NCBI GenBank assembly: GCA_035540675.1
Contig: DATLGB010000223.1
Location: forward strand, 4,502 to 68,501
From: Solirubrobacteraceae bacterium
GTDB lineage: Bacteria > Actinomycetota > Thermoleophilia > Solirubrobacterales > Solirubrobacteraceae
Direction of reading: 5' to 3'
Length of the DNA: 64,000 nucleotides
Shown: positions 20,530-53,622 of the stretch, piece after piece
Numbering within the stretch: the first letter of the stretch is position 1
How the letters are laid out: each line of letters opens with the position of its first letter
Notes under the pieces: generated by a model
Databases searched by the model: none
Told to the model about the DNA's origin: nothing
Seen by the model: only the letters and a program-made list of their open reading frames with translations
Made by a program: the position numbers and the translations under genes

Positions 20530-20589
20530 CCCGCGACCATCCCACCCGTTCCCACCGCGCGCAAGGCGTGAAGGAATAGCCTGCGCGGG

Positions 20590-32679: not shown

Positions 32680-34010
32680 GGCCTCCCGATCCGGTCGAGC
32701 AGCAGGTGCGAGATCGTGGCGTGCGCCTCCTGCAGGCGCGGGACGTAGTCGCCGGGGACGCCGATGTGGTGGTCAAGCCAGCCGGCGCCGGCCAGACGGC
32801 CCCCGTCGTAGCCCGTGACGGCGACGGTCAGCATCCCGCGGCGGCGGGCCTCCTCGAGCCCGGCAAGGACGTTCGGCGACGACCCGCTCGTGGAGAACGC
32901 GATCGCCACGTCGCGCGCGCGGCCGAGCGGGATCAGCTGCCGGGCCCAGACGTTCTCGAAGCCGACGTCGTTGGCCACCGCGGTGACCGTCGGCGCGTCG
33001 TCGACGAGCGCGACCGCCGGCCAGCCCGCCGCCTGCGCGTCGAAGGCGAGGTCCTGGGCGTCGGTGGCCGAGCCGCCGTTGCCGAACGCGAGCAGGCGGC
33101 CGCCGGCGTCGAGGCGCGCGCGCACGGCCGCGGCGCACGCCGCGATCGCGTCGGCGTCGATCGTCCGCCGCAGCTCGATGGCGTCGCGCCCCTTGCGCAG
33201 TGTCGACGCGCGCACGTCGGCCAGGACGGCCTCGAGGTCGCGCTCGTCACCTTCGAGGAACGGATACAGGAAGCCCGTCGCCTCCGCCGGCGCGGCCGCG
33301 CGCTCGAGGCGCTCCAGCGCGACGCCGGCGTGGCAGAGCAACCGGTCGCCGGGTGCGACGGGCCCGACGAGGTCCACCGCGACCGTCTCGCGCGCGCCGC
33401 CGTGCTCGACGACCGCCGCCGTCCCCTCCACCGCGACGACCTCGACCTCCACCGCCACGTCGCCGCAGGTCAGGCACGCGTCGTCGAGCAGCCCCGGGTG
33501 CTCGAAGAAGACGTGCACGAGCTCCCACAGCACGTGGTACGTCGTCTCCTGCACCTCCTGGACGATCTCGGGCGCGGCAGCGGGCACCACGAACGCGTGG
33601 TCGGCGGCGAGCCGCTCCGCGCCGGCACCGAGCGCGATCGTCAGCATGCCGCGCCGTCGCGCTTCCTCCAGGAACGCGTCCAGCCGGCCGGGCTCGTGCG
33701 CCATCCCGATCGCGATGTCCTGCGGTCCGCCGAACGCCAGCGCCCGCTCCGGGCCGCCGGCGGGCGCGAGCGCCGGCAGCGCCCGCTTGCCGACGATCAC
33801 GGGGTGCATGAACTCGACCGCCACGTGGGCGGCGTCCGTGACGGCGGCGCCCGCGCCGTGCGCGATCAGCACGCCGCCGCGCGCGAAGGCGCGGGCGAGG
33901 TCGTGGCAGGCGCGCGCCAGCCGGTCCTGCTCGCGCTCGAGGAACGCCTCGAGCACCCGCTCGCGCTCGGCGATCGCGGTGGCGCTGGGACTGGTGGCGG
34001 AGGGCGTCAT
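32676..34010 (-). CDS. Fusion protein: degenerate SIS domain, HypC/HupF-like OB domain, then GmhA-like SIS domain
   Basis: ATG 34010 (ATGA with the hypC stop); its stop overlaps the hypD start (ATGA). The N-terminal SIS lacks S/T motifs (HGAGAAVTDAAHVAVEF). Middle CLTCGDVAVEVEVVAV...GDRLLCHAGVALERL. C-terminal AFGNGGSATDAQDLAFD and AFSTSGSSPNVLAGLEEARRRGMLTVAVTG. Confidence 0.7.
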   Translation of the reverse strand: MTPSATSPSATAIAERERVLEAFLEREQDRLARACHDLARAFARGGVLIAHGAGAAVTDAAHVAVEFMHPVIVGKRALPALAPAGGPERALAFGGPQDIAIGMAHEPGRLDAFLEEARRRGMLTIALGAGAERLAADHAFVVPAAAPEIVQEVQETTYHVLWELVHVFFEHPGLLDDACLTCGDVAVEVEVVAVEGTAAVVEHGGARETVAVDLVGPVAPGDRLLCHAGVALERLERAAAPAEATGFLYPFLEGDERDLEAVLADVRASTLRKGRDAIELRRTIDADAIAACAAAVRARLDAGGRLLAFGNGGSATDAQDLAFDAQAAGWPAVALVDDAPTVTAVANDVGFENVWARQLIPLGRARDVAIAFSTSGSSPNVLAGLEEARRRGMLTVAVTGYDGGRLAGAGWLDHHIGVPGDYVPRLQEAHATISHLLLDRIGRP

Positions 34011-34285
34011 TCGATCGAGGACGACCGCAGGTCGTCGAGCTCCTGCTCGAAGGCCTCGCCGAGCTCGACGAGGAACGCGCGCGTGGCCTCCGCCTCGGCC
34101 TCGTCGATCTTCGACATCGCGAAGCCGACGTGGATGAGCACCCAGTCGCCGACGTCGACGGCGTCGGGGCCGCCGCTGAGCAGGCCGACGTTGATCGCAC
34201 GCCGCACCCCCGAGACCTCCGCCTTGGCGATGTGGTGCTCGGGGTCGACCCACTCTACGATCTGGCCGGGAATTCCTAGGCACAT
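34007..34285 (-). CDS. hypC: Hydrogenase maturation chaperone HypC
   Basis: MCLGIPGQIVEW...GDWVLIHVGFAMSKIDEAEA. C-terminal part of ORF 34007..35698. Confidence 0.9.
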   Translation of the reverse strand: MCLGIPGQIVEWVDPEHHIAKAEVSGVRRAINVGLLSGGPDAVDVGDWVLIHVGFAMSKIDEAEAEATRAFLVELGEAFEQELDDLRSSSIE

Positions 34286-36462
34286 GACGCACGCATCCTC
34301 GCGGCCGCGACCGCAGCTTGTCCATAGGCGATCCCGCCGTCGTTCGGAGGCAGACGCCGGTGGGTCAGGACGCGGAACCCCGCCGCCTCGAGCCGCCGGC
34401 GCAGCGACCGGGCCAGCCGCCGGTTCTGCAGGCACCCCCCGCTGAGCGCGACGGTGTCGCCCGGAGTCGCCGCGGCGGCGCAGGCGGCGGCGAAGGCCGC
34501 GGCGAGGCCCTCGTGCACCGCGGCGGCGATCGCCGCCGCCGGGCGCCCGCCCCGCAGATCGTCGTGCGCGGCCCGCACGAGGTCGCTGCCGCGGATCACG
34601 CCGCCGGCGACCCGGCAGGGATAGGCGCGCGCCTCGGCGTCGCCAGCGAGCTGCTCGAGCTCGATCGCGGCCTGCCCCTCGTAGCTGATCACCTCGCGCA
34701 CGCCGAGCAGCGCCGCGACCGCGTCGAGCAGCCGCCCGGCGCCCGACGACGGGGGCGCGTTGACCGCCAGCGACTGGCGAACGAGCCTCCAGCGCTCCCA
34801 CGGCACCGGGCGCCCCGCCCGCTCGAGGTGCGCCGCGGCCGCGCGCCACGGCTCGCGGATGGCGGCCTCGCCTCCGGGCAGCGGCACCGGCTCGAGGTGC
34901 GCGACGCGCTCGAAGTCCGCCAGGTCGCACCGCAGCAGCTCGCCGCCCCAGAGCGTGCCGTCGGTCCCGTAGCCCGTCCCGTCGAGCACGATCGCCAGCG
35001 CGGGCGCCGTCTCGCCGTGCTCGGCCAGGCAGGCGGCGGCGTGCGCGTGGTGGTGCTGCACGCCGACGAGCTCGGCCTCCTGCTCCAGCGCCCAGCGCGT
35101 CGAGCGGTACTCGGGGTGCAGGTCGTGCGCGACGACCGCCGGCCGAATGCCGAGCATCTCCAGGTACAGGCGCAGGTCGTCGCCGAAGGCGAGCACCGCC
35201 GCCTCCGAGGAAAGGTCGCCGAGGTGCCCCGACGGGAACGCGCGCGCCCCGACCGCGACGCAGAACGCGCTCTTGAGGTCGGCTCCGGCGGCCACCAGCG
35301 GCTCCGGCGCCGCCAGCGGCAACGACAGCGGCGCCGGCGCCAGCCCGCGCGAGCGCCGCAGCGGATGCGCCGCCCGCACCACCGAGTCCTCGCAGCGCCG
35401 CTGGATTGGGCGGTCGTGGCCGAGGAAGGCGTCCGCGATGTCGCGCAGCCGGTCGTGCGCCTCGTCGTCGCCGACCGCGATCGGCTCGTCGCCGCGGTTG
35501 CCGCTGGTCATCACGAGCGGGCCGCCGAAGTCGTGCGCCAGCAGGTGGTGCAGCGGCGTGTAGGGGAGCATCACCCCGAGCTCCCGGGCGCCGGGCGCGA
35601 CCGACGGCGCGACGGGCGCGGCGGCCAGGCGCTCGAGCAGCACGATCGGCCGTGATGGCGCTTGCAACAGCGCCCGCTCGTCCGGCGATACCCGGCACAG
35701 CGCGTCCGGGTCGCCCGTCATCAGCGCGAACGGCTTGGCGTCGCGCGCCTTGCGCGCGCGCAGCCGCGCGACCGCGAGCTCATCGGCGGCGTCGCAGGCG
35801 AGATGCCAGCCGCCGAGGCCCTTCACGGCGAGGATGCCGCCGGCGCGCAGCACCGCGACCGCCTCCTCGAGCGGCATCGACAGGCGCGGCCCGCAGGCGG
35901 GACAGGCGATCGCCTCGGCGTGGAAGCGGCGGTCGGCCGGATCCTCGTACTCCGCCCGGCAGTCGCCGCAGAGGGGAAAGCCGGCCAGGGTCGTCCGCTC
36001 GCGGTCGTAGGGCAGCGCCCGCACGATCGTGAAGCGCGGCCCGCAGTTGGTGCAGGTCAGGAACGGGTAGCGGTGGCGCCGGTCGGCCGGGTCGAACAGC
36101 TCCCGCAGGCAGTCGGCGCACGTCGACAGGTCCGGCCCGATCGCCGGCGCCCCGGCGCCCCCGGCGCTCGTCGCGACGGCGAACCGGCGCTCTCCGCTCG
36201 GCGCCACGGACGTCTGCACGACGCCGTCGAGGGCGGCCGCGGCGGGCGCCTCGGCCACGAGCGCGGTGGCGAACGCATCCAGCGCCGCCGGCGACCCCTC
36301 GACCTCGACCTCGACGCCGGCGGCGGTGTTGCGGACATGGCCGCCGAGGCCGTGCCGGACGGCCAGGCCGTGCACGAAGGGCCGGAACCCCACGCCCTGC
36401 ACGATGCCCGTGATCTCGAGGCGGCGGCGCGCGGCCGGGACTGCGTCGGAGGCGACCGCCAC
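34276..36462 (-). CDS. hypF: Carbamoyltransferase HypF
   Basis: Acylphosphatase-like GIVQGVGFRPFV. Zn fingers CADCLRE..CTNCGPRFT and CGDCRAEY..CPACGPR. YrdC-like and Kae1-like C-terminal domains. Confidence 0.95.
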   Translation of the reverse strand: MAVASDAVPAARRRLEITGIVQGVGFRPFVHGLAVRHGLGGHVRNTAAGVEVEVEGSPAALDAFATALVAEAPAAAALDGVVQTSVAPSGERRFAVATSAGGAGAPAIGPDLSTCADCLRELFDPADRRHRYPFLTCTNCGPRFTIVRALPYDRERTTLAGFPLCGDCRAEYEDPADRRFHAEAIACPACGPRLSMPLEEAVAVLRAGGILAVKGLGGWHLACDAADELAVARLRARKARDAKPFALMTGDPDALCRVSPDERALLQAPSRPIVLLERLAAAPVAPSVAPGARELGVMLPYTPLHHLLAHDFGGPLVMTSGNRGDEPIAVGDDEAHDRLRDIADAFLGHDRPIQRRCEDSVVRAAHPLRRSRGLAPAPLSLPLAAPEPLVAAGADLKSAFCVAVGARAFPSGHLGDLSSEAAVLAFGDDLRLYLEMLGIRPAVVAHDLHPEYRSTRWALEQEAELVGVQHHHAHAAACLAEHGETAPALAIVLDGTGYGTDGTLWGGELLRCDLADFERVAHLEPVPLPGGEAAIREPWRAAAAHLERAGRPVPWERWRLVRQSLAVNAPPSSGAGRLLDAVAALLGVREVISYEGQAAIELEQLAGDAEARAYPCRVAGGVIRGSDLVRAAHDDLRGGRPAAAIAAAVHEGLAAAFAAACAAAATPGDTVALSGGCLQNRRLARSLRRRLEAAGFRVLTHRRLPPNDGGIAYGQAAVAAARMRASCA

Positions 36463-36468
36463 CCGTAC

Positions 36469-36822
36469 CTACGGCGTCGCCGGCCGCGGCAGGTCGGCGC
36501 GCGAGTCGATGTCGGCGGGCGAGGCGGCGGCCGTGCCGGCCTCCGTCGGGCCGCCCGAGGTCGTCTGCTCGGCGGGTGGCGCCGGCTCGCCCACGACCTC
36601 CTGCAGCGCGGTGGCCACCTGGGTGAGCGCCGCGTTGACGTCGCCGAGCGCCTGGCCGATCGGCGCCGTCTGCGACTCGATCGCGCGCACGCCGAACGTC
36701 ACGAGGCCGAGGGTCTTGGAGATGTTGCGCAGCGTCCGGGCGATCGCGATCAGGTAGCCCGCGAGCACGACGACGAGCAGCAGGACCTCGACGAGCGTGA
36801 GGACGATCAGCAGGGTGTTCAC
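36469..36822 (-). CDS. Small single-pass membrane protein, paralog 4 of 4 (117 aa)
   Basis: GTG 36822 (GTGA with the upstream stop). VNTLLIVLTLVEVLLLVVVLAGYLIAIARTLRNISK..., Pro/Ala-rich tail. Ends 7 nt before the hypF start. Confidence 0.6.
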   Translation of the reverse strand: MNTLLIVLTLVEVLLLVVVLAGYLIAIARTLRNISKTLGLVTFGVRAIESQTAPIGQALGDVNAALTQVATALQEVVGEPAPPAEQTTSGGPTEAGTAAASPADIDSRADLPRPATP

Positions 36823-37091
36823 GATTGGCCCCTCCCGGCTTGGCGATGGCGCTCGACTTCCTCGGCGAGCTCGGTTCCACGGGCGACGGTCGCCCCCAGC
36901 AGGTACGACGTCTGCGTGTTCTGGGCGACGAGCTTGCCGGTGTCCCACAGCACGGCCACGCCCTCGTCGATCCGCTTGACCGTGCGGCGCAGCGCCTCGA
37001 GGAGGGCCCACACCACCAGGGCCACCACGAGACCCACCGCGAGCGTGATCCACCACGCGGTCTGGTTCGACGTCATCGCGATCACGGTCAT
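36819..37091 (-). CDS. Small single-pass membrane protein, paralog 3 of 4 (90 aa)
   Basis: Track ORF. ATGA overlap. AWWITLAVGLVVALVVWALLEALRRTVKRIDEG... Confidence 0.6.
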   Translation of the reverse strand: MTVIAMTSNQTAWWITLAVGLVVALVVWALLEALRRTVKRIDEGVAVLWDTGKLVAQNTQTSYLLGATVARGTELAEEVERHRQAGRGQS

Positions 37092-37360
37092 ACGAGCCCC
37101 AGCTTCTTGAGGTAGCCGACGGCGAGGCCCGGAACGGCGCCGCCGAGGCGGCGGGTCGTGGCGAGCTGCTCGACGCCGTCGAGGTTGGTGGCGATGCCCA
37201 CGCCGGCCTGCAGGATGTCCTTCGCGTAGGAGTCGATCTCGCGCGCGGGCGCCATGATCCGCTGGAAGAGCGCGATCACGACGGCGAGCACCACGACGCC
37301 GAGCACGAGCCCGACGATCGCGAGCACGGCGCCGGCGGTCGACACGGCCAGGACGCTCAT
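37088..37360 (-). CDS. Small single-pass membrane protein, paralog 2 of 4 (90 aa)
   Basis: ATG 37360 (ATGA overlap). MSVLAVSTAGAVLAIVGLVLGVVVLAVVIALFQRIMAPAREID... Confidence 0.6.
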   Translation of the reverse strand: MSVLAVSTAGAVLAIVGLVLGVVVLAVVIALFQRIMAPAREIDSYAKDILQAGVGIATNLDGVEQLATTRRLGGAVPGLAVGYLKKLGLV

Positions 37361-37608
37361 CCGAACAGCTTCTCCCGCGCGGCGGCGAGGCTGCGCGTTA
37401 TGCGGTCGACGGTGTGGTTGGTCGTCCGGACCTCCCACAGCGGGTCCGTGTTCGCCGCCGCGCCCGCCAGGGCGCGCGTGATGTCCCCCGCCTGGCGCAC
37501 GATGCGCCGGCCCTCGCCGATGATCACCAGCAGCAGCGTCGCCGCGATCAGCACGACCACGAGCCCGACGCCCCAGCCGACGTACCAGCCGTAGGAGAGC
37601 GCGGTCAC
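37357..37608 (-). CDS. Small single-pass membrane protein, paralog 1 of 4 (83 aa)
   Basis: GTG 37608 (GTGA overlap with the DUF1059 stop). VTALSYGWYVGWGVGLVVVLIAATLLLVIIGEGRRIVRQAGDI... Confidence 0.55.
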   Translation of the reverse strand: MTALSYGWYVGWGVGLVVVLIAATLLLVIIGEGRRIVRQAGDITRALAGAAANTDPLWEVRTTNHTVDRITRSLAAAREKLFG

Positions 37609-37790
37609 TTCGACGGGAGGTCGCGGATCGCGGAGCGCGCGTAGCGGGCCAGCGTCGACGACTGCGAGAGGTCGACGCCGTGGACCTCCTTGGCGTGCTC
37701 GACCGCCTTCGCGAGGACCTCCTCCTCGGTCTCGCCCCGCACCTCGGCCTTGCACAGGACGCCGGCGTCCGCGCACTTGAAGCTCTTCAC
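37605..37790 (-). CDS. DUF1059-type small metal-binding protein (61 aa)
   Basis: GTG 37790 inside ORF 37605..37841. (M)KSFKCADAGVLCKAEVRGETEEEVLAKAVEHAKEVHG. Confidence 0.7.
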   Translation of the reverse strand: MKSFKCADAGVLCKAEVRGETEEEVLAKAVEHAKEVHGVDLSQSSTLARYARSAIRDLPSK

Positions 37791-37806
37791 GACGGGACCT
37801 CCACCG

Positions 37807-37891: not shown

Positions 37892-39283
37892 GTGGCGACG
37901 CGAGCGAGGACGTCCGAGAAGACTCCGGCCGAGCGGCTGCTCGACGCCCTCGGCCCGGTCGAGGGGTTCAACCCCGACCATGGCGACTTCGGGTCACCGG
38001 CGCGGATGACGATGGAGGACTACCTCGCGCCCCACGCCGTCGCCGACGAGTCGACGCGCCTCGGCCCGCTCGAGAAGGTGCACCTCTTCTGGTTCGCCGG
38101 GATGAGCTGCGACGGCTGCAGCGTCGCGGTCACCGGCGCGCAGGCGCCGACCCTCGAGGGGCTGCTGATGGGCGCCCACCCGGGCCTGCCGCGCGTCGTG
38201 CTGCACCACCCGGTGGTCAACCTCGAGGCCGGCCCGGCCTACGTCCGCGCGGCCGAGCAGGCGCTCGCGGGAACGCTCGACGCGCCGTACGTGATCGTGC
38301 TCGAGGGTTCGATCAGCGACGAGACGATCCCGTACGCGTTCGGCGGCTACTGGGCGGGCCAGGGCGAGGAGCCCTGGGGGCCCGACGGCGAGCAGCGGAC
38401 CGTCACGGCCGACGAGTGGATCGCACGCATGGCCGACGGCGCCGCGGCGATGATCGCCATCGGCACGTGCGCCACCTGGGGCGGCATCCCGTCGGCGGCC
38501 GGCAACCCGACGGGGGCCATGAGCCTGATGGACTTCCTCGGCCGCGACTACCGCAGCACCTTCGGGGTGCCGGTCATCAACGTCCCGGGCTGCCCGCCGA
38601 TCGGCGACAACTTCACGGAGGCCGTCGCCGCGGTCGTGTACTTCCTGCAGGGCTTCGGGCCGCTGCCGGAGTTCGACGAGCTCGGACGGCCGGCCTGGCA
38701 GTTCGGCGAGACGGTGCACCGCCACTGCACGCGCGGCGCGTACTACGAGGAGGGCAACTTCGCGAAGGAGTACGGCGACAAGGAGTGCCTCGTCGAGCTC
38801 GGCTGCTGGGGCCCGGTCGTCAACTGCAACATCACCTCGCGCGGCGCCATCAACCACCACGGCGGGTGCATGAACGCCGGCGGCCCCTGCATCGGCTGCA
38901 CGATGCCCGGCTTCCCCGACAAGTTCACGCCGTTCTACAAGGCGCCGCCGGGCTCGAAGGTCTCCAGCACGATGTCGCGGATGCTCGGCTCCTTCATCCG
39001 CCCGCTGCGCGAGTACTCGAACGAGCACCTCAACCGGGAGGTGCGCTGGGACCTCGAGGGCCACGTCCCCAGCGGGTGGGCGCGGCGCCAGGAGGAGCCG
39101 GGGCCCATCCGGGCCGTCGGGCACCGCTTCTACGACCGGATGCGCCAGTCGACCGACGGCGCACGGCGCTCCGGCGAGACGTGGGGCAAGCGCGACGAGT
39201 TCACGTTGATGAAGGACCCGTCGCTGGATCGCCGCCTCCCGGGCGGCGAGGAGGAGACGCTCACCATCGACGAGGGGCGCTAG
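37892..39283 (+). CDS. [NiFe]-hydrogenase small subunit, no Tat signal, long hydrophilic C-terminal extension
   Basis: GTG 37892, 7 nt after GGGAGGGAG (track start 37874 also possible). FWFAGMSCDGCS, GTCATWGGIP, PGCPPIGDN, HRHC..C, CLVELGCWGPVVNC, GGCMNAGGPCIGCTMPGFPD. No RRxF motif. Confidence 0.9.
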   Translation: MATRARTSEKTPAERLLDALGPVEGFNPDHGDFGSPARMTMEDYLAPHAVADESTRLGPLEKVHLFWFAGMSCDGCSVAVTGAQAPTLEGLLMGAHPGLPRVVLHHPVVNLEAGPAYVRAAEQALAGTLDAPYVIVLEGSISDETIPYAFGGYWAGQGEEPWGPDGEQRTVTADEWIARMADGAAAMIAIGTCATWGGIPSAAGNPTGAMSLMDFLGRDYRSTFGVPVINVPGCPPIGDNFTEAVAAVVYFLQGFGPLPEFDELGRPAWQFGETVHRHCTRGAYYEEGNFAKEYGDKECLVELGCWGPVVNCNITSRGAINHHGGCMNAGGPCIGCTMPGFPDKFTPFYKAPPGSKVSSTMSRMLGSFIRPLREYSNEHLNREVRWDLEGHVPSGWARRQEEPGPIRAVGHRFYDRMRQSTDGARRSGETWGKRDEFTLMKDPSLDRRLPGGEEETLTIDEGR

Positions 39284-39287
39284 CGCC

Positions 39288-41189
39288 GTGTGCTTCAAGA
39301 ACCTCCCCATCGAGTTCGACGAGGGCGGCGTCGCCACCCTGCGCGGCGGCATCCCCAATCCCTACGCCGTCGAGGTGTCAAAGCCCCACGTGGGGATGAC
39401 CAACGACGAGCAGCGCGAGCAGATCGAGCGCCTCGTCGCGTCCAACGGGCACATCCGCGAGATCAACATGGACCCGGTCACGCGCGTGGCCGGCGCCATC
39501 GCGCTCAACATCGCCGCCAACCTCGACGACGGCAAGTACCTCGACGCGCGCTCGCAGGCGACGCTGTTCCGCGGCTACGAGGTGATCCTCATGGGCCGCG
39601 ACCCGCGCGACGCGATCTTCGTGTCCTCGCGCGCGTGCGGCGTCTGCGGCGGCGTCCACGCTCACTGCTCGGCCTACGCGATCGAGATGGCGATGGGCGT
39701 CGCGCCGCCGCCGATGGGGACCGTCGTGCGCAACCTCGGCGAGGCCGCCGAGATGGGCTACGACAACCCGCTGCACCTCTACCTGCTGGCCGGCCCCGAC
39801 TACTCCGAGATCGTCGTCCGCGCCACCAACCCGGAGATCTGGGAGAAGGCGCAGACGTGGAAGTGCCCCGGCGCCGAGCACCACGGCTTCAAGACCATGG
39901 GCGAGCTGATGACGGCGCTGAACCCGCTGACGGGCCGCCTGTACCGCGAAGGACTGGACTTCACCCGGCTGGCGCGCGAGATGTTCGTGCTGCTGCACGG
40001 CAAGTACCCGCACCCGCAGGCGATCGTCCCCGGCGGCGTCACCTCGACGATCTCGCTGCAGACGCTCAACGAGTACCAGGCCAAGCTCGGGCGCATCTTC
40101 GACTACGCCCAGCGCCTGGTCGCGGTGTGGGACGACATCCCGGAGTTCTTCTACGAATGCGACGAGCGCTACAAGCTCGTCGGCTCGCGGCCGGTCAACC
40201 TCGTCGACACCGGCTTCTGGGACGACCCCTACGCCTACGACGCCACGTACGAGAACTGCAACGAGTGGGGCGCGCGCCGCTGGTCGACGCCGGGCGCGAT
40301 CATCGACGGCGAGCTGGTCACGACGCGCCTGACCGACCTCAACATGGGCATCGAGGAGTTCGTCGAGCACTCCTACTACGAGCAGTGGGCGGGCGACCGC
40401 TACGAGACCGACCCGCTCGGCAACCCGCTCTCGCCCTACCACGCGTGGAACAAGCAGACGCTGCCCAAGCCGAGCGGGCGCAGCTGGAAGGACAAGTACA
40501 CCTGGGCCTGCACGCCGCGCTGGGACCGCCACGTCGTCGAGGCCGGCGCCTACAACCGCCTGTTCATGACGGCGCTGGCGCAGCAGCAGCCCGAGAACGA
40601 CTTCATCGAGGCCACCGGCACCGGCATCCGCATGTCGATCCCCAAGGGCTACACGAAGGCCGCCGAGGCCGAGTGGCGGATCCCGGACTCCTGGAACGCG
40701 TTCGAGCGCAACCGGGGGCGCGCCTACCACTACCTGTTCTCGCAGCTCGTCGGCCTGTCGAGCCTGCTCGAGGCCTACAAGCTCTTCCGCGCGGGTGAGA
40801 CGCGGGTCGCCGCGCTGAACTCCAAGGAGCTCGAGAAGGCGATGCCGCGCGACGAGCGGCGCGGCGTCGGCTTCTGGGGCGCCGGCCGGGGCTGGCTGAC
40901 GCACCACATCGTCATGGACAACGGCAAGATCACCAACTACCAGATCAACACCCCGTCGACCATCAACGCCTCGCCGCGCGACCCGTGGGGACAGCCCGGG
41001 CCGTACGAGCAGGCGGTCCAGAACACGCCGATCCTCGAGAAGTTCTCGAGTCCCGACGAGTTCACGTCGATCGACATGCTGCGGGCGCTGCGGTCGTTCG
41101 ACCCGTGCATGCCGTGCACGACCCACACGGCCACCGGCAACGGCACCGTGATCGGCCAGGTGAACACCTGCTCGTGCGGCGCCGACTGA
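39288..41189 (+). CDS. [NiFe]-hydrogenase large subunit (subgroup unassigned)
   Basis: L1 RACGVCGGVHAHC, L2 RSFDPCMPCTTH followed by a 20-aa cleavable-type tail. GC3-rich from the GTG at 39288. Atypical DPVTRVAGA and GAGRGWLTHH. Confidence 0.9.
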   Translation: MCFKNLPIEFDEGGVATLRGGIPNPYAVEVSKPHVGMTNDEQREQIERLVASNGHIREINMDPVTRVAGAIALNIAANLDDGKYLDARSQATLFRGYEVILMGRDPRDAIFVSSRACGVCGGVHAHCSAYAIEMAMGVAPPPMGTVVRNLGEAAEMGYDNPLHLYLLAGPDYSEIVVRATNPEIWEKAQTWKCPGAEHHGFKTMGELMTALNPLTGRLYREGLDFTRLAREMFVLLHGKYPHPQAIVPGGVTSTISLQTLNEYQAKLGRIFDYAQRLVAVWDDIPEFFYECDERYKLVGSRPVNLVDTGFWDDPYAYDATYENCNEWGARRWSTPGAIIDGELVTTRLTDLNMGIEEFVEHSYYEQWAGDRYETDPLGNPLSPYHAWNKQTLPKPSGRSWKDKYTWACTPRWDRHVVEAGAYNRLFMTALAQQQPENDFIEATGTGIRMSIPKGYTKAAEAEWRIPDSWNAFERNRGRAYHYLFSQLVGLSSLLEAYKLFRAGETRVAALNSKELEKAMPRDERRGVGFWGAGRGWLTHHIVMDNGKITNYQINTPSTINASPRDPWGQPGPYEQAVQNTPILEKFSSPDEFTSIDMLRALRSFDPCMPCTTHTATGNGTVIGQVNTCSCGAD

Positions 41190-41202
41190 GTCGCGGCGGC
41201 GC

Positions 41203-41688
41203 GTGATCCTCGTCGCCGGGGTCGCCGAGCTCTACCAGGGCGACCTCGACCTCGGGCGCGTCGCCGTCGCGCGGCTGCAGGAGGCCGGCCTCGGCGACGA
41301 CGTGCGGGTGGAGGAGCTCTCCTACGGCGCCGTGGCCGTGACGCAGCGGCTGCAGGAGCTGCGGCCGGACGCACTCGTCCTGATCGCGGCGCACCCGCGC
41401 GGCCGCGAGCCCGGCAGCGTCGAGCGGCGCGACGTCGGCCCCAGCGACCTCCCCGCGGCCGAGCTGCAGACGGCCATCGGCGACGCGATCACCGGCTACG
41501 TGACGGTCGACCTGCTCGTCGAGGTGGCGACGGCGCTGGAGGCGCTGCCGCCGCGAGTGGTCGCCATCGAGGTCGAGCCGGCGCGGGTCGAGCCGGTCGA
41601 CGAGCTGTCCGAGCCGGCGCGGGCGGGGCTCGAGCGGGCGCTCGAGCTCGTGCGCACGGAGGTCGAGCGCCTGCGGGCGCGCAGCTAG
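41203..41688 (+). CDS. Degenerate HyaD/HupD-family hydrogenase maturation protease-like protein
   Basis: Fold-level resemblance (ILVAGVAELYQGDLDLGRVAV...ALVLIAAHP...). By my alignment the GNxxxxD(D/E)GxG motif and the Glu/Asp/His metal ligands are not conserved. Confidence 0.55.
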   Translation: MILVAGVAELYQGDLDLGRVAVARLQEAGLGDDVRVEELSYGAVAVTQRLQELRPDALVLIAAHPRGREPGSVERRDVGPSDLPAAELQTAIGDAITGYVTVDLLVEVATALEALPPRVVAIEVEPARVEPVDELSEPARAGLERALELVRTEVERLRARS

Positions 41689-42419
41689 AGCGCCGGCACG
41701 ATCTCGTCCGGCGGCTCGAGCCGGGCGAGGTGCTGCGGGCGGACGGCGATCCGCCGCCCGTCGGGCTGCTCGATCACGAGCGCACCGTCGCGCAGCACGC
41801 TCGTCGCGGTGCCGGTGATCTGGACTCCATCCGGCCAGGTGGGGATGAGGTGCGCCCGGACCGGACGGCCGAGCGTCGCGCAACGCTCGCGATAGCGCGC
41901 GAGGGCGGCGTCGTCGGGCTCCTGGAGGCGCTCCACGGCCGCCGCCAGGCGGGCGATCAGCTCGCCGCGCGGGGAGGGCGCGTCGAGCACGAGCAGGTTG
42001 ACGACCGCCCACTCCACGCCGGTGGGACCGAGCCCCGCGTGCCCGGCCACGTCGGCCAGCCGGCGCTCGGTCGCCCACACCTGGTCGGGCCACTCGATCG
42101 CCGCAGCGGGATCGACCGCGTCGACCACGGCGGCCGCGGCGGCGACGAACAGCCAGCCCTCGTCGTCGGGCGCGAGCTGCGGCCGCAGCAGCAGCGAGAA
42201 GCACAGGTCGCGGCCCGGGCGAGGCGTCCACGGCAGGCCGCCGCGGCCGCGCGCGGCGGCCTGGTAGTCGGCGGTGACGACGGCGCCCGCAGGCCCGCCG
42301 GCGCGCGCCCAGGCGACGGCGTCGGCGTCGGTCGACATGACGGCGGGATAGGTGCGGACGGGGCGATCGCCGAGCGCGCGCGCGAGCGCGTCGGGGGTGA
42401 GGTCGTCGCTCAGCGCCAC
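41685..42419 (-). CDS. Biotin/lipoate protein ligase (BirA catalytic domain)-like protein
   Basis: Track ORF. ADYQAAARGRGGLPWTPRPGRDLCFSLLLRP resembles the GRGRxGRxWxSPxGxxL motif, but degenerate. Confidence 0.5.
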   Translation of the reverse strand: MALSDDLTPDALARALGDRPVRTYPAVMSTDADAVAWARAGGPAGAVVTADYQAAARGRGGLPWTPRPGRDLCFSLLLRPQLAPDDEGWLFVAAAAAVVDAVDPAAAIEWPDQVWATERRLADVAGHAGLGPTGVEWAVVNLLVLDAPSPRGELIARLAAAVERLQEPDDAALARYRERCATLGRPVRAHLIPTWPDGVQITGTATSVLRDGALVIEQPDGRRIAVRPQHLARLEPPDEIVPAL

Positions 42420-43645
42420 GGCCCGGGATCACCGTGGTCGAGCGCCGCCTGCGCGAAGACGTCCTGCAGCCGCATCCACTGCGGGATGTGGAAGCGCGCC
42501 ATGGCGCGGCGGACGGCCTCGCGGAACGTCTCGGCCGTGTCAGCGTCGGTCGCCGCCAGCGCCTGCATCGCGCTCGCCACGAGCCGGTCGAGCGCGTCCG
42601 ACGGCAACTCGAGCAGGGCGCCGAGCCAGATCTGCGCGACGTCGGTGGGGTCGCGACGGGCGCGCGCGTGGACCGCTACCCACTCCGCGGCATCGGAGCG
42701 GCGGGCGTCGTCGCCGGCGTCGGCGCTGCGCAGCAGCTCCTCCCGCGCGAGCTGCTCGGCCGCGAGGTCGCCGGCGGCATCGAGGGCGGTGCCGAGGTCC
42801 TCGGCCTGCGGGACCCCCAGGCGCCGGATTAGCTCAGCCGCCTGCGCGCGCACCGGCTCGGCGGCGCCGGGCGCCGCGAGCGCCTGCCGCGCCGCCAGGC
42901 GCGCCCGTGGCGCGTCGCCCGCGCGCTCGAGCGCCAGCGCCAGGTTGGCCTTGGCCATCGCGAAGGCGTCGGGGCGCAGCGCGCGCGGGCTCGAGGCGAC
43001 GGCGACCGCGAACGCCTCGGTCGCGGCCTCGGGACGTCCCCCGGCCAGTCGCGCCAGCCCCAGCGCGTTGGCGGCGGCGGCGCGCCCGGGGGCGTCCCCC
43101 GCGCGCTCGCTCAGCTCCACCGCAGCCTCGAGTGCCGCCTCGGCACCGTCGGCGTCGCCGGCGTCGAGCCGCGCGGCGCCGAGCTCGCGCAGTGCGGCGG
43201 CGGCCTGCGCCGGCACGCGCCGCTCGTCGAGGCGCTCCACCGCCCGCTCGAGCACGCGGGCGGCGGCCTCGGCGCGTCCTCCCTCGCGCATCACCAGCCC
43301 GAGGTTGTACAGCGCGGCGCCCTCGTCGAGGGGCAGGCCGGCGGCGGCCAGCCCGGCGGCGGCGTGCTCGAGCGCCCGCTCGGCGACGTCGAGGCGGCCG
43401 GCGGCACGCAGCGTGGCGCCGAGCCCGTTGAGCGCCTTCGCCTGCTCCGGACGCGCGCCGCGCAGGCCGAACAGGCCGGCCGCGGTCGTGAACGCCTCCT
43501 CGGCGGCGTCGAGCGCGCCCTGCGCGAGGAGCACGCCTCCGAGGTGGAACTGGACGGTGGCGTGCTGGAGCGGGTGGCGGTGCGCGTCGTAGCGCTCCAG
43601 CCGCCCGCGCAGCTCGTCGAGGACGTCGTCGGGAGCCGCCGCCAC
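42410..43645 (-). CDS. TPR-repeat protein
   Basis: Track ORF. At least 6 Ala/Leu/Gly-rich TPR-like repeats (ALNGLGATLRAAGRLDVAERALEHA...). Unrelated C-terminal helical domain. Confidence 0.6.
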   Translation of the reverse strand: MAAAPDDVLDELRGRLERYDAHRHPLQHATVQFHLGGVLLAQGALDAAEEAFTTAAGLFGLRGARPEQAKALNGLGATLRAAGRLDVAERALEHAAAGLAAAGLPLDEGAALYNLGLVMREGGRAEAAARVLERAVERLDERRVPAQAAAALRELGAARLDAGDADGAEAALEAAVELSERAGDAPGRAAAANALGLARLAGGRPEAATEAFAVAVASSPRALRPDAFAMAKANLALALERAGDAPRARLAARQALAAPGAAEPVRAQAAELIRRLGVPQAEDLGTALDAAGDLAAEQLAREELLRSADAGDDARRSDAAEWVAVHARARRDPTDVAQIWLGALLELPSDALDRLVASAMQALAATDADTAETFREAVRRAMARFHIPQWMRLQDVFAQAALDHGDPGPWR

Positions 43646-44266
43646 CTAGGCGTCCGCGCCGCCGCGCGGCAGGCGCGTCTCGATCTGCAGCAGCCCGGCA
43701 TCGGCCGGCCCCGCGGCCGGGGGCGGGAAGGCGTCGATCTGCAGCAGCGTCGGTCCGGGCGGCGGATGCGGCAGGGCGTCGTCCTCCTCGACCTCCATGG
43801 CCACGAAGCCGGGCATGCCCTCGCGCAGCGCCTCCTCCACGCCCCGGCGCAGCGTGATCGTCGACGCGGTGCAGCCCGAGCAGGCGCCCGAGAGCCGCAC
43901 GCGCACGACGCCGCCGGCGGCCTCGACGACGCTGACGTCTCCGCCGTGCGAGTGCAGGTAGGGGCGAACGCCGTCCAGCGCCGCCTCGGCCGCCGCGCGC
44001 TCGTCGACGCCGACGGCATACGCGTTCAGCAGCCAGCCGACGGCCGGGTCGGCGCCGCGCAGCCGCTCGACCTCGTCCGGATGCAGCGCGGCGGCGAGGC
44101 GGTGGAGCGCGTGTCGGTGGACGGCGTCGATGCCGTCGAGCAGCGAGAAGACCCGCGCGCGCACGGCCTCGTCGAGAGCGTCGACCGCCCGCAGGTCGTC
44201 CTCCATGTCGTCGAGCAGGTCGTCGAAGTCCGTCACCGGCGAAGTACCTTTCGTCACTTGGACCAT
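43646..44266 (-). CDS. NifU C-terminal (Nfu)-domain protein
   Basis: ATG 44266 in the frame of ORF 43646..45682. VRPYLHSHGGDVSVVEAAGGVVRVRLSGACSGCTASTITLR. Confidence 0.75.
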   Translation of the reverse strand: MVQVTKGTSPVTDFDDLLDDMEDDLRAVDALDEAVRARVFSLLDGIDAVHRHALHRLAAALHPDEVERLRGADPAVGWLLNAYAVGVDERAAAEAALDGVRPYLHSHGGDVSVVEAAGGVVRVRLSGACSGCTASTITLRRGVEEALREGMPGFVAMEVEEDDALPHPPPGPTLLQIDAFPPPAAGPADAGLLQIETRLPRGGADA

Positions 44267-44731
44267 ACCGGCCGCATCATCGTCGCGTGCGTGGGCAACG
44301 TCCTGCGGCTCGACGACGGTTTCGGGTACGCGGTCGCCGAGCGGCTCGGCGACGTGCCGCCGGGCGTCGAGGTGCTGGAGAGCGGCATCGGCGGCATGAT
44401 GGTCGTGCAGGAGCTGCTGGTCGGGGCGGACGGGCTGATCATCGTGGACGCCGTGGACCGCGGCGCGGCGCCCGGCACGCTGTTCGTGATCGAGCCGGAG
44501 GTGGAGCCGCCGTCGCAGGTCGGCGACATCCACCTGTCCAACCCGGACAAGGTGCTGTCGCTGGCCGGCGGCCTCGGGTGCCTGCCTGAGCGGCTCCTGC
44601 TGGTCGGCTGCCAGCCGCGCGACGTCGAGGGCATGGGTCGCCGCCTGTCGCCGGAGGTCGAGCGAGCCGTGGACCTGGCGGTCGACCGCATCCACGCGAT
44701 CCTGCGCGAGTGGACGGCCGCCCCGGCGTGA
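44258..44731 (+). CDS. Hydrogenase maturation endopeptidase (HyaD/HupD/HybD family), canonical
   Basis: IIVACVGNVLRLDDGFGYAV, LIIVDAV, GDIHLSNP. The start is uncertain: TTG 44258 is the only in-frame start upstream of the first strand, and it overlaps the divergent NifU-like start by 9 nt. Confidence 0.75.
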   Translation: MDHTGRIIVACVGNVLRLDDGFGYAVAERLGDVPPGVEVLESGIGGMMVVQELLVGADGLIIVDAVDRGAAPGTLFVIEPEVEPPSQVGDIHLSNPDKVLSLAGGLGCLPERLLLVGCQPRDVEGMGRRLSPEVERAVDLAVDRIHAILREWTAAPA

Positions 44732-45336
44732 GCGGCGACCGCGAGCGCTGGAACGAGCGGCACGCCGCCGCGCTGGCCGCCGGGCGGGCGAACGGGCCGC
44801 CGAGCGCGTGGCTGCTCGAGCACGCCGGTGTCGTGGCGGCGCAGCCGCGCGGCCGCGCGCTCGACGTCGCGTGCGGCCTCGGCCGCAACGCGCTGCACCT
44901 CGCCGCGATGGGCTTTCGGGTTCTCGCCCTGGACGTCTCCGACGTCGCGGTCGAGCACGTGGCGCGGCGCGCGCGCGAGCGGGGTCTGGCGGTGGAGGCG
45001 CGACGGGTCGACCTCGGTCGCGAAGCGCTGCCGCCGGGACCCTTCGAGGTCGTCGTGGTCGCGTCCTTTTTGGACCGCCGCCTGCTCGGGCCGCTGGCGC
45101 GGGCGCTCGCCCCGGGCGGGCTGCTGCTCTACGACACGTTCCTGGCCGATGCGACGGCGACCTGCGGCCCGCGCGATCCCGCGCACGTCCTGCGGCCGGG
45201 GGAGCTCTCCGCGGCCTTCGCCGGCCTCGAGCGGCTGGATCTGCGCGAAGGCGCCCCGGCGCCCGGCGAGCGCGCGCGGGCCCGGCTCCTCGCCCGCCGC
45301 CGCGACGGGTTGCCGGTGTGTGTTCCAGACACGTAG
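44728..45336 (+). CDS. Class I SAM-dependent methyltransferase (TehB/TPMT-like)
   Basis: GTGA-coupled to the protease. WNERH...ALDVACGLGRNALHLAAMGFRVLALDVS. Confidence 0.7.
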   Translation: MSGDRERWNERHAAALAAGRANGPPSAWLLEHAGVVAAQPRGRALDVACGLGRNALHLAAMGFRVLALDVSDVAVEHVARRARERGLAVEARRVDLGREALPPGPFEVVVVASFLDRRLLGPLARALAPGGLLLYDTFLADATATCGPRDPAHVLRPGELSAAFAGLERLDLREGAPAPGERARARLLARRRDGLPVCVPDT

Positions 45337-45346
45337 AATCGCGCCC

Positions 45347-46099
45347 ATGAAGCTCGTCGTGGCCGGCAAGGGCGGCTCGGGGAAGACGTCCATCTCGGGG
45401 ACGCTGGCGCGCCTGCTCGCCCGCTCGGGCCGGCGCGTGCTGGCGATCGACGCCGACTCCAATCCGAACCTGTCGCTGACGCTCGGCATCCCGGCCGACC
45501 GCTTCAACTCGGTGCCCACGCTGCCGCGCGACCTGCTGCAGCGCACGCCGGATGGCGCACGGCTGTCGAAGTCGCTCGACGAGATCCGGTCCTCGCACTC
45601 CCTCGACGGGCCCGACGGCGTCAGCCTGCTCGTCATGGCCCACCCGCAGCACGCGGGCACCGGGTGACTGTGCTCCATGCACGCTACGGTCCGTAGCGTC
45701 ATCGAGGTGTCAGGCGAGGGTCCCGCGGACGTGACGATCCTCGACACGGAAGCGTCGCCGGAGCACCTCTCGCGCGGGACGGCGATGCACGCCGACGCGA
45801 TGCTCGTGGTCGTCGAGCCCTACTTCAAGTCGCTCGAGACGGGCCGGCGGATGGCGGCGCTCGGCACCGACCTCGGGCTGCCGCGCGTCGCGCTCGTGGC
45901 CAACAAGATGCGCGACGAGCGCGACGAGGCCGCCGTGCGCGAGTTCGCCGAGCAGCACGGGCTCGAGGTGGCGGGGACCATCCCCTTCGACGAGGCGATG
46001 CCGGCCGCCGAGCGCGCCGGCGTCTCACCGCTCGACCACGATCCCGGCGCGCCGAGCGTCGCGGCGATCGGCGAGCTCGCCCGGAGCTTCGTGCGATGA
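45347..46099 (+). CDS. CooC/AcsF-like MinD-family Ni-insertion ATPase with in-frame TGA (codon 107) replacing the first Cys of the CxC metal site; probable selenoprotein (alternatively a pseudogene)
   Basis: Tail of track ORF 44828..45667 and ORF 45677..46099 share one frame. Joined: MKLVVAGKGGSGKTS (deviant Walker A)...LLVMAHPQHAGTG-U-LC-SMHATVRSV...ILDTEASPEHLSRGT...VVVEP. 250 aa, typical CooC length. U-x-C aligns with CooC Cys-x-Cys. Confidence 0.7.
45681..45699 (+). promoter_or_regulatory. Candidate bacterial SECIS hairpin (CooC-like gene)
   Basis: UGA-N13-ACGCUAC(G)[GUC](C)GUAGCGU. 7-8 perfect bp, apical GGUCC/GUC loop. Confidence 0.6.
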
Positions 46100-46461
46100 G
46101 CGACCTCGAGCGGCTGAAGATCCTCGACGAGGTCCTGCAGGCGATGTACTGGATGCACGCCGAGGGCATCTCGTCGGTACCGACCGCGGACGAGCTCTCG
46201 CGCTTCCTGGGCGTGCCGTCGGGGACGCTCGCGCCCCACCTGGAGGGCTTCGCCGACGACGGCCTGCTCGAGCGCGAGGCGGGCGGCTACCGCCTCAGCG
46301 CCGAGGGGGAGCAGCGCGGCAAGCGGACGTTCGCCGACGAGTTCGCGGGCCTGACCGGCGCCTCGCACGGCGAGTGCGACGAGAACTGCTGGTGCCACGA
46401 TTCGCCGGAGGCGGCGGCGAGCTGTCTGGAGGAGCGCAGCGGGCATGCCCACCAGCACTGA
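46096..46461 (+). CDS. Small DtxR-like winged-helix protein with Cys/His-rich C-terminal tail (metal sensor or metallochaperone candidate)
   Basis: ATGA-coupled to the CooC-like gene. LQAMYWMHAEGISSVPTADELSRFLGVPSGTLAPHLEGFADDGLLERE... then HGECDENCWCHDSPEAAASCLEERSGHAHQH. Confidence 0.55.
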   Translation: MSDLERLKILDEVLQAMYWMHAEGISSVPTADELSRFLGVPSGTLAPHLEGFADDGLLEREAGGYRLSAEGEQRGKRTFADEFAGLTGASHGECDENCWCHDSPEAAASCLEERSGHAHQH

Positions 46462-46834
46462 GCCGGCGGCGCCGCTGCTGCCGCGCAACTTCCTGCGCCC
46501 GTGCGTCCTGCTGTTGCTGCGCGAATCCCCCGCTCACGGTTACGACCTGCTCGAGCGGCTCGCGGCCTTCGGGTTCGCCAAGCAGGATCCGGGCGGCCTG
46601 TACCGCGCGCTGCGGGCGCTGGAGGACGAGGGCCTCGTGCGCTCCTCGTGGGAGGCGTCCGACCAGGGCCCGGACCGCCGCATCTACGAGATCACGCGCG
46701 CGGGCGCCGAGCACCTGCACGAGCACGCGCTCGCGCTGCAGTCGACCGCCGACGTGCTGCACGCGTTCCTTGGCCGCTACGAGGAGTTCGTCGCGCTGCC
46801 GGAGCGCCCCCGCGCGGCGCGGGCGCTGCGCTGA
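46445..46834 (+). CDS. PadR-family transcriptional regulator
   Basis: LLLLRESPAHGYDLLERL...GGLYRALRALEDEGLVRSSWE...RRIYEITRAG. Confidence 0.85.
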   Translation: MPTSTEPAAPLLPRNFLRPCVLLLLRESPAHGYDLLERLAAFGFAKQDPGGLYRALRALEDEGLVRSSWEASDQGPDRRIYEITRAGAEHLHEHALALQSTADVLHAFLGRYEEFVALPERPRAARALR

Positions 46835-52845: not shown

Positions 52846-53622
52846 TCACGCCCGCCGCCGGGTGCCGTACTGCGCCGTCAGGCGCGTCGCGAGCGCCTCG
52901 ATCGCGGCCACGGCGTCCGAGCCCGGCGCATGCTCGATCAGCGGCCGCCCGAGCCGCTCGGCGTCCGCGACCGCCGCGTCCCGCGGCACGACGGCGACCG
53001 CGCGCGTCCCGAGGAAGCGCTCGATCCGCTGCAGGTCCTGCGCGCCTGACACCTTCGAGGCGACCAGGCTCACCGTCGGACCGGGGCGCTGCGACACTAT
53101 CCGTGCCACCCGCCGGGCCGTCAGCAGCGACTGCATGGTCGGCTCGGCCACCAGCAGGAACGTCTTCGCGTACGGCGCCCAGTCGAACGCCACCTGGCGC
53201 GGCCCCGCCGGCAGGTCGCCGACGAACGCCCAGTCGCGCAGGGCGGCTGCGTCGCCGATGCCGTGGACGACGCGCCAGAACGCCTGCACGGCCGGCATGA
53301 ACTCGGCCTGACCGCCGGGGCCCGCCTTGCCCAGCTCCAGCAGGCGCACGCCGTCCGGCGCGTCGTAGGCGAACCGCTGGACCGCGCGAACGGGGCCGAT
53401 CCCGCGCGCGAAGCGCCAGCGACCGTTCTCGCCGCGCTCCGCCGCGACCATCAGCGCGGGCTGCGGCGGCGTCCGGGCCCCGAGCACGAACGCCATGCCC
53501 GGCATCACGTCGGAGTCGAGCGCCAGCACGCGCTCGCCGCGCCGCGCCAGCACGCGAGCCAGCGTGCCGGCGACGACGGACTTCCCGGCCCCGCCCTTGC
53601 CGACGACCGCCACTCGCGTCAT
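52846..53622 (-). CDS. MinD/ParA/CooC-superfamily ATPase lacking the CxC metal motif
   Basis: ATG 53622 (ATGA with the upstream stop). MTRVAVVGKGGAGKSVVAGTLARVLARRGERVLALDSD. C-terminal part of ORF 52846..54897. Confidence 0.7.
   Translation of the reverse strand: MTRVAVVGKGGAGKSVVAGTLARVLARRGERVLALDSDVMPGMAFVLGARTPPQPALMVAAERGENGRWRFARGIGPVRAVQRFAYDAPDGVRLLELGKAGPGGQAEFMPAVQAFWRVVHGIGDAAALRDWAFVGDLPAGPRQVAFDWAPYAKTFLLVAEPTMQSLLTARRVARIVSQRPGPTVSLVASKVSGAQDLQRIERFLGTRAVAVVPRDAAVADAERLGRPLIEHAPGSDAVAAIEALATRLTAQYGTRRRA

Follow-up and report, generated by a model that had tools for sequence, protein, structure and literature searches.

A CooC-like ATPase gene with a predicted selenocysteine codon at its putative metal site, beside a [NiFe]-hydrogenase cluster of a Solirubrobacteraceae bacterium

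Introduction

CooC1, CooC and AcsF are the nickel-insertion factors of Ni,Fe-CO dehydrogenase (PDB 3kje-3kji). The dimer interface of CooC1 has a site for Zn, with which Ni competes, formed by Cys112 and Cys114 (PMC6006190). Here we describe a CooC-like gene in which an in-frame UGA codon takes the place of the first of these cysteines. The gene lies in a stretch of 64,000 nucleotides (nt) from a Solirubrobacteraceae bacterium (assembly GCA_035540675.1, contig DATLGB010000223.1, positions 4,502 to 68,501 of the forward strand), which was analysed as a whole and is referred to below as the window. Judged by comparative sequence analysis, it is very probably a genuine selenocysteine (Sec)-encoding gene of a new selenoprotein family.

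The hairpin that specifies Sec in bacteria, the bacterial selenocysteine insertion sequence (bSECIS), has been modelled as a stem of 4-16 base pairs (bp) with a loop of 3-9 nt and a G in the first two loop positions, located 16-37 nt from the UGA and with a minimum free energy at or below -7.5 kcal/mol (PMC13188914). We compared the window with this model, with CooC1, with orthologues from related genomes and with the described Sec-containing and nickel-handling proteins.

Results

A UGA codon at the putative metal motif of a CooC-like ATPase

The gene and its elements are the following:

45347-46099, forward strand: CooC-like MinD-class ATPase gene, with its terminal stop TGA at 46097-46099; assigned from the match to 3kje, the Pfam family CbiA and an AlphaFold (AF2) model
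45365-45388, forward strand: deviant Walker A motif GKGGSGKT (residues 7-14), read from the translation, invariant in the alignment and paired with GKGGVGKT of CooC1
45665-45667, forward strand: in-frame UGA, the proposed Sec codon, residue 107, first position of the putative U-x-C metal site, aligned with CooC1 Cys112
45671-45673, forward strand: TGC encoding Cys109, second residue of the putative U-x-C metal site, aligned with CooC1 Cys114
45677-45702, forward strand: bSECIS-like hairpin, in which the core stem 45681-45687 pairs with 45693-45699

Translation of 45347-46099 yields a single frame of 250 codons, and the TGA at 45665-45667 is its sole internal stop. A preliminary description of this DNA had pointed to two open reading frames in the same frame (the tail of 44828-45667, and 45677-46099); they are the two halves of the 250-codon frame, joined by TGA CTG TGC TCC, which is followed by ATG. 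The motifs that it had named in the read-through product (GKGGSGKT, HAGTG-*-L-C-S, ILDTEA and VVVEP) are all present in the translation.

The predicted protein matches CooC1 from C. hydrogenoformans (PDB 3kje) in a HMMER comparison with E = 1.3e-27, and the two sequences are collinear over residues 1-217. With 'HAGTG*LCS' aligned on 'KGGSQCYCR', the TGA coincides with the first Cys of 'GSQCYC' (Cys112) and the Cys that follows it with Cys114, which confirms the earlier placement of the UGA on the first cysteine of the CooC Cys-x-Cys motif. The U-x-C motif of the window protein thus occupies in the alignment the C-x-C position of CooC, where Cys-form orthologues read C-x-C. The AF2 model, built from 19 sequences, has a predicted local distance difference test (pLDDT) score of 88.8, and its best structural match in the PDB is again CooC1 (3kje), with NifH-type Fe proteins also among the fold matches. 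Model confidence is lowest in the loop that contains residue 107, nothing out of the ordinary for a loop at an interface. At the family level the protein belongs to Pfam CbiA, and NCBIfam release 20 contains no specific model for a CooC-like Sec protein.

A hairpin that resembles bacterial SECIS elements

The hairpin ACGCUAC(G)-GUC-(C)GUAGCGU, which had been noticed downstream of the UGA, is present at 45681-45699, with ACGCTAC(G) at 45681-45688, GTC at 45689-45691 and (C)GTAGCGT at 45692-45699. Its apex can be read as GGUCC or, with an eighth G-C pair, as a closed GUC loop, so that the stem measures 7-8 bp. The 27-mer folds with -12.0 kcal/mol (z-score -3.8), and 1 of 200 shuffled sequences folds equally well. 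Together with the spacing of 20-21 nt between UGA and loop, these values place the hairpin of the CooC-like gene within every limit of the bSECIS model (PMC13188914), a comparison that the preliminary description had recommended.

The same description had pointed to a GGUC loop at a similar distance from the UGA in the SECIS element of E. coli fdhF, and this holds: in the fdhF sequence of E. coli K-12, GGUC forms the apical loop and begins 18 nt after the UGA, compared with 20-21 nt in the window. Both hairpins are located within coding sequence and share the apical GGUC. The stem sequences are unrelated, however, and nothing conserved in the window hairpin corresponds to the bulged U of fdhF.

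A lower extension of the stem (AUG/CAU with a bulged C) was considered as part of the element and dropped, because it is unconserved in sequences with Leu at position +4. An Rfam scan of the window at gathering thresholds returned tRNA-Lys only, and no SECIS family.

Sec and Cys forms among orthologues

Scanning one genome per GTDB species gave 78 loci, all in metagenome-assembled genomes (MAGs) of Thermoleophilia (Gaiellaceae, Thermoleophilaceae and Solirubrobacteraceae), with 63-76% identity to the window protein. Including the window and extra copies, the set comprises 81 orthologues. The codon at the Sec/Cys column is TGA in 36 of them and TGC or TGT in 45, and 35 other genomes share both the TGA and the hairpin with the window gene. 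In the closest full-length database proteins the column is occupied by Cys (18 of 18).

The preliminary description had proposed to look for orthologues with either Cys or TGA plus a conserved hairpin; both kinds exist, and the hairpin occurs only in the TGA forms. All seven stem pairs are formed in 35 of the 36 UGA forms and six in the remaining one, compared with two to five in the 45 Cys forms. The difference is visible in codon choice: the Ala codon in the stem is GCT, and the Arg codon CGT, in 35/36 UGA forms each, and neither codon occurs at these positions in any of the 45 Cys forms, in which Ala is encoded by GCC, GCG or GCA and Arg by CGC or CGG. Where the third codon positions of a genome are 97% GC, as here, both GCT and CGT are rare. 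Mean fold energies are -11.2 kcal/mol for the UGA forms and -6.0 kcal/mol for the Cys forms (Mann-Whitney p = 4e-12). Within 35 nt past the UGA, the consensus of the UGA forms is CAC GCT ACN GTN CGT AGC GT, and their loops vary as (C/G)GU(G/U/C)(C/A). In a divergent UGA form (locus L073, around 6319), the stem reads ACGUUAC...GUAACGU, a compensatory change from C-G to U-A that also alters the encoded amino acids.

The frame past the UGA is under purifying selection, with a median pairwise ratio of nonsynonymous to synonymous substitution rates (dN/dS) of 0.24 at dS 0.75, and no stops or frameshifts occur past the UGA in the 36 UGA-form sequences. The Leu and Cys codons directly after the UGA are conserved, with Cys109 kept in 35 of the 36 Sec forms. 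The Leu codon between UGA and Cys109 varies synonymously (CTG, CTC, TTG), as expected of translated sequence, and on this evidence the frame past the UGA is clearly translated. The only candidate for a restart is the Met at +4 (in the window an ATG 9 nt after the TGA). It is replaced by Leu (CTC, CTG or CTT) in 6 of the 36 UGA forms, and a conserved restart codon is therefore lacking.

Neighbour joining places the UGA forms in one large, deep clade, inside which three small Cys groups are nested. This pattern fits a single old change from Cys to Sec, which would have been followed by occasional reversions or by paralogues. Two copies are found on one contig in several cases: L019 (UGA) stands with L064 (Cys), L020 with L049 (both UGA), and in L029 (1236, 6001) and L047 (1102, 6001) a Cys copy is located 4.8 kb from the UGA copy. 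Such coexisting paralogues hint that the copies may divide the work between them instead of one simply replacing the other.

Contigs L082 and L083, from independent metagenome assemblies of closely related strains (runs SRR8438987 and SRR8438990), differ from the window by 15 and 2 single-nucleotide polymorphisms and have an identical TGA and hairpin. One UGA-form locus (L028, JADDQH010000117.1) comes from a MAG labelled Chloroflexota, and its region is nearly identical to L024 from an Actinomycetota MAG; the Chloroflexota label is probably a binning error.

The family is widespread in protein collections as broken entries. The C-terminal half of 140 amino acids (aa) has 1419 matches at E <= 1e-20, and nearly all of the best 120 are 140-160 aa long and correspond to UGA forms split by gene callers. 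The top match (99% identity) comes from a Solirubrobacteraceae MAG, where it is annotated as 'hypothetical protein'. Overall, the UGA family is represented by at least 35 loci from species-representative Thermoleophilia genomes and by more than a hundred clusters of metagenome proteins, in which gene calling has broken it into two.

A second UGA gene and the Sec machinery

A scan of the window for UGA codons flanked on both sides by coding-type sequence returned exactly two, one in the CooC-like gene and one in a MerB-like gene:

19858-20541, reverse strand: MerB-like lyase gene with UGA at 20086-20088 (coding-frame scan, Pfam MerB)
20056-20073, reverse strand: hairpin of the MerB-like gene, CUCUUCC-GGUC-GGAGGAG, -9.5 kcal/mol

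The UGA of the MerB-like gene aligns with the catalytic Cys of MerB2 5c17 ('GTCKQIHYF') in a motif F-T-U-S. It also aligns with the Sec of WP_238493467.1, a MerB-like protein already known as a selenoprotein. The hairpin starts 12 nt after the UGA, with 19 nt to the loop. Among soil-metagenome relatives, 79 of 80 carry the TGA, and the hairpin-forming CGG and TCG codons are unchanged in nearly all. The gene was rejected as an equivalog of SaoL (NF040728, 45.7 bits against a cut-off of 140); going by its sequence, it may represent a distinct subfamily related to the MerB-like/SaoL selenoproteins with their CU motif. A second gene with a UGA and with the same GGUC apex as the hairpin of the CooC-like gene supports the idea that the host organism would decode Sec.

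ARAGORN found no tRNA-Sec in the window or in 163 loci, and the single SelB-like tblastn match, in L094, proved to be a TetM/EF-G-type GTPase. SelD, SelA and SelB are present in the cultured Solirubrobacter soli, Solirubrobacter sp. URHD0082, Patulibacter americanus and Conexibacter woesei Iso977N (PMC5029168 Table S1). Their presence in cultured Solirubrobacterales lends indirect support to Sec decoding.

The hydrogenase neighbourhood

The CooC-like gene stands at the end of a [NiFe]-hydrogenase cluster. The features of this region are:

30464-36441, reverse strand: hypE, hypD, hypC-SIS fusion, hypC and hypF (Pfam)
32682-33989, reverse strand: the fusion of a HupF/HypC domain with SIS domains, 436 aa, beside a normal HypC of 81 aa
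36469-37796, reverse strand: five small open reading frames (63-118 aa) between hypF and the hydrogenase small subunit, one of them DUF1059 and the others without a family
37925-39283, forward strand: [NiFe]-hydrogenase small subunit (Pfam NiFe_hyd_SSU_C, Oxidored_q6)
about 39396-41189, forward strand: [NiFe]-hydrogenase large subunit (Pfam NiFeSe_Hases)
41188-41688, forward strand: hydrogenase maturation protease (NCBIfam TIGR00072)
41685-43633, reverse strand: BirA-like and TPR genes (Pfam/NCBIfam)
43646-44242, reverse strand: NifU-like domain protein (Pfam NifU, E = 6e-22)
44264-44731, forward strand, start approximate: second maturation endopeptidase, HycI/HupD type (Pfam HycI, E = 2.5e-17)
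44710-45336, forward strand: TehB-like class I S-adenosylmethionine-dependent methyltransferase (Pfam, NCBIfam), its start overlapping the end of the protease gene
46096-46461, forward strand: partner gene for a 121-aa protein, overlapping the stop of the CooC-like gene by ATGA (conserved synteny)
46445-46834, forward strand: PadR-family regulator, third gene of the conserved triad (Pfam PadR, E = 1e-19; synteny)
52846-53613, reverse strand: second MinD-like ATPase, with no Cys at all

Among solved structures, the closest relative of the large subunit is 5aa5 (E = 4e-144), which we take to be the actinobacterial-type (group 1h) hydrogenase of R. eutropha. The subunit has a C-terminal extension past DPCMPCTTH; during maturation of [NiFe]-hydrogenases such an extension is cleaved only after Ni insertion. 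There is no in-frame UGA in the large subunit gene. Neither hypA nor hypB was found in the 64-kb window by tblastn with E. coli HypA and HypB or in the Pfam and NCBIfam annotation.

The order protease, CooC-like gene, 121-aa gene and PadR recurs across loci, and a homologue of the maturation protease is found shortly upstream of the CooC-like gene in many of them. Among UGA-form loci, 28 of 35 have the 121-aa gene directly 3' of the CooC-like gene, as do 42 of 45 Cys-form loci, and hydrogenase-related genes are present within about 6 kb in 22/35 and 31/45, respectively; these neighbour counts are lower bounds, as many contigs are short. Neither Pfam nor NCBIfam has a family for the 121-aa protein. 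The protein contains a Cys/His motif, HGECDxxCWCHxSPExAAxCL, conserved in 71 copies, and a His-rich C-terminus, which suggest that it probably binds metal.

TehB enzymes methylate tellurite and selenite. The TehB-like gene was considered as a link to selenium and dropped, as it lies near the CooC-like gene in only a few loci; it probably falls outside the conserved core. The 118-aa and 70-aa reading frames of the 36469-37796 region recur in a few related loci. The MinD-like gene at 52846-53613 was ruled out as a further Sec/Cys paralogue because its product is free of Cys. Pairs of MinD-like genes of this Cys-free type stand just downstream of the triad of CooC-like, 121-aa and PadR genes in many loci (L009, L013, L017, L022, L026, L030 and others). 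Elsewhere in the window, a DnaB helicase gene (27681-30341, reverse strand) is split by an intein with a LAGLIDADG endonuclease domain.

Discussion

A proposed mechanism

The preliminary description had called the CooC-like protein a probable selenoprotein. The pairing of Cys and UGA among orthologues, the agreement with the bSECIS model, the restriction of the hairpin to UGA forms, the purifying selection downstream and the recovery of the same UGA in two independent assemblies back this proposal. With nearly the confidence that we place in the gene as a Sec gene, we explain the locus as a whole as encoding a 250-residue CooC-like ATPase in which UGA codon 107 is read as Sec, with the in-gene hairpin acting as the bacterial SECIS element.

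In the mechanism that we propose, the hairpin would recruit SelB carrying Sec-tRNA(Sec) to a ribosome that has paused at the UGA codon. If the product behaves like CooC1, two of its monomers would dimerise around a metal ion, and Sec107 and Cys109 of each monomer would create a site of two Se and two S where CooC1 has four thiolates. Uptake and release of the metal would be controlled by the binding and hydrolysis of ATP at the deviant Walker A motif. The most likely client would be the hydrogenase large subunit and the most likely cargo Ni(II), because the gene ends a [NiFe]-hydrogenase cluster and because hypCDEF and two endopeptidase genes, and no hypA, hypB or Ni-containing CO dehydrogenase (Ni-CODH), were found in the window. 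The 121-aa Cys/His protein and the PadR regulator would be probable partners, or a sensor.

Both metal and client enzyme we infer from homology and gene neighbourhood, which tip the balance slightly towards delivery of Ni to the neighbouring hydrogenase by the CooC-like protein. We speculate that Sec could be of benefit because a selenolate is fully ionised at neutral pH, exchanges metal faster and is re-reduced more easily, properties that could help an aerobe. A bolder version, in which the Sec form serves many soil Thermoleophilia as the nickel insertase of a group 1h-like [NiFe]-hydrogenase and replaces or outranks HypA/HypB by means of an O2-resistant Ni(Se)2(S)2 site, is tentative and, in our judgement, rather unlikely. 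The idea that the CooC-like protein always replaces HypB was rejected. It is not simply a HypB replacement, because L069 and L077 have both hypA and hypB beside their Cys-form gene.

Several observations weigh against this account. Concerning the hairpin, part of the loop (G-U) is fixed by a Val codon, and the stem is nearly invariant, so that L073 is the single source of covariation; the motif in L073 is U-L-S instead of U-L-C, without the second Cys. Concerning decoding, tblastn with E. coli SelA, SelB and SelD gave no true match in the 64-kb window and about 1 Mb of related loci; because neither sel genes nor tRNA-Sec were found there, we infer the Sec machinery, and with it Sec insertion itself, from indirect evidence. 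Concerning function, CooC from R. rubrum does not bind Ni tightly (PMC6006190). A Sec subclade of seven loci (L019-L021, L023, L029, L043 and L047) has neither the 121-aa gene nor the PadR gene downstream and no hydrogenase structural gene within 6 kb. Finally, hypA and hypB do occur beside the Cys forms in L069 and L077, the only loci with tblastn matches to these genes.

Alternative explanations

The alternative that survives best accepts the insertion of Sec and assigns it another role: the protein could handle an Fe-S cluster, as Mrp/NBP35-type or NifH-like proteins do, or carry another metal, or act in a metal- or redox-sensing module with the 121-aa protein and PadR. The tightest conserved neighbours are indeed these two genes and not hydrogenase genes, around some Sec-form loci there are no structural genes for a hydrogenase within 6 kb, and hypAB coexist with the gene in two loci; NifU-like genes nearby and NifH-type Fe proteins among the fold matches would fit an Fe-S function. 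CooC1 is nevertheless the best match in both sequence and fold, with the C-x-C aligned exactly, a maturation protease gene lies shortly upstream in many loci, and the window contains hypCDEF, with hypA and hypB not found. We regard another role as a serious minority possibility, clearly less probable than delivery of Ni to the hydrogenase.

A UGA that is read by a near-cognate tRNA as Cys, Trp or Arg, independently of SelB, would produce a selenium-free full-length protein, with the hairpin merely slowing termination. UGA followed by C is a leaky stop context in E. coli, and C follows the UGA in 35 of the 36 UGA forms; the failure to find sel genes or tRNA-Sec in the window and related loci would also be explained. 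However, the loop content and spacing of the hairpin match the SelB-type bSECIS model, the MerB-like gene in the same window has its UGA at the Sec position of its family and a GGUC loop too, and SelABD occurs in relatives of the same order. Moreover, most of the product would be wasted if an essential metal ligand were encoded by a leaky stop, yet the UGA has been kept across a deep clade. Standard readthrough is thus improbable.

Still less probable is a true stop at the UGA. The gene would then be split into a 106-aa P-loop fragment and a separately initiated 140-aa fragment that assemble non-covalently, or the N-terminal fragment would be the sole functional product. Gene callers divide the gene in this way, and the window offers the ATG shortly past the TGA. 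But that Met is Leu in six Sec forms, the Leu and Cys codons ahead of it are conserved, and all 45 Cys forms are single chains. Residues 107 and 109, the putative metal ligands, would be lost from both fragments, and the UGA-specific hairpin would be left without a role.

A pseudogene or an assembly or sequencing error would require a single change from TGC to TGA, and the best full-length database matches all have Cys, but this explanation is effectively refuted by the comparative data, since the TGA recurs in 35 other genomes and two independent assemblies, dN/dS downstream is 0.24 with no stops or frameshifts, and the hairpin co-occurs with the TGA.

Implications and comparison with known systems

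The setting is unexpected, as Sec would be used in an aerobe and beside an oxygen-tolerant hydrogenase. The Sec/Cys pairs, sometimes within one genome, provide a natural experiment on the effect of Se at a Ni site. If the nickel-insertase reading is true, H2 oxidation by these Thermoleophilia hydrogenases would depend on selenium supply, a testable link between selenium availability and H2 oxidation by soil bacteria. In public records, the halves that are now annotated separately should be joined.

The closest described proteins are CooC1, CooC and AcsF, with which the window protein shares the MinD-class fold, the GKGGxGKT motif, 217 collinear residues and the position of a two-ligand X-x-Cys motif. 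Identity is only about 25%, and the first ligand is encoded by UGA (Sec) here and is Cys there. The partner also differs: in place of cooS/acs there is the [NiFe]-hydrogenase cluster of aerobic Thermoleophilia, and the downstream genes encode the 121-aa Cys/His protein and PadR, not CooT or CooJ. Pfam scans of the window genes detected no CODH domain. We use the name CooC-like rather than CooC because association with Ni-CODH, a defining feature of CooC, is not found at this locus.

HypB proteins, including the ATPase-type (Mrp/MinD) HypB of Thermococcus kodakarensis (PDB 3vx3, 5auq), are likewise nucleotide-driven Ni chaperones in hydrogenase clusters. The archaeal ATPase-type protein, which is among the fold matches of the window protein, shows that a MinD-class ATPase can do the job of HypB. 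Its sequence similarity to the window protein is confined to the P-loop (E = 1.8e-5, residues 4-39), however, and the metal motif and family of the window protein are CooC-like. The usual HypB is a G3E GTPase, in contrast to the MinD-class window protein, which has no HypB among its Pfam and NCBIfam matches.

Replacement of a Ni-ligating Cys by Sec has a precedent in the large subunits of [NiFeSe] hydrogenases, which establish Ni-selenolate chemistry (PMC13188914). There, Sec is part of an enzyme active site in sulfate reducers and methanogens, whereas here it would belong to an accessory ATPase of an aerobe. A CobW-related selenoprotein (NF041053, UxxC; COG0523) offers a second parallel, as a P-loop NTPase of a metallochaperone family with a predicted Sec in a Cys-type metal motif. 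It is a G3E GTPase and not a MinD ATPase, has UxxC in place of UxC and occurs in other organisms.

The preliminary description knew of no Sec-containing chaperone of CooC or HypB type. In agreement with this, no CooC, MinD, ParA or similar P-loop ATPase is among the 119 prokaryotic selenoprotein families catalogued in May 2026, and full-text searches of the literature returned no description of a Sec-containing CooC, CO dehydrogenase maturation factor, HypB or other metallochaperone. The combination of a canonical bacterial Sec/SECIS gene with a CooC-type ATPase is therefore new and previously undescribed. The protein would be the first metallochaperone of the CooC/MinD class in which a selenolate serves as metal ligand, and would extend the use of Sec from redox catalysis to metal trafficking.

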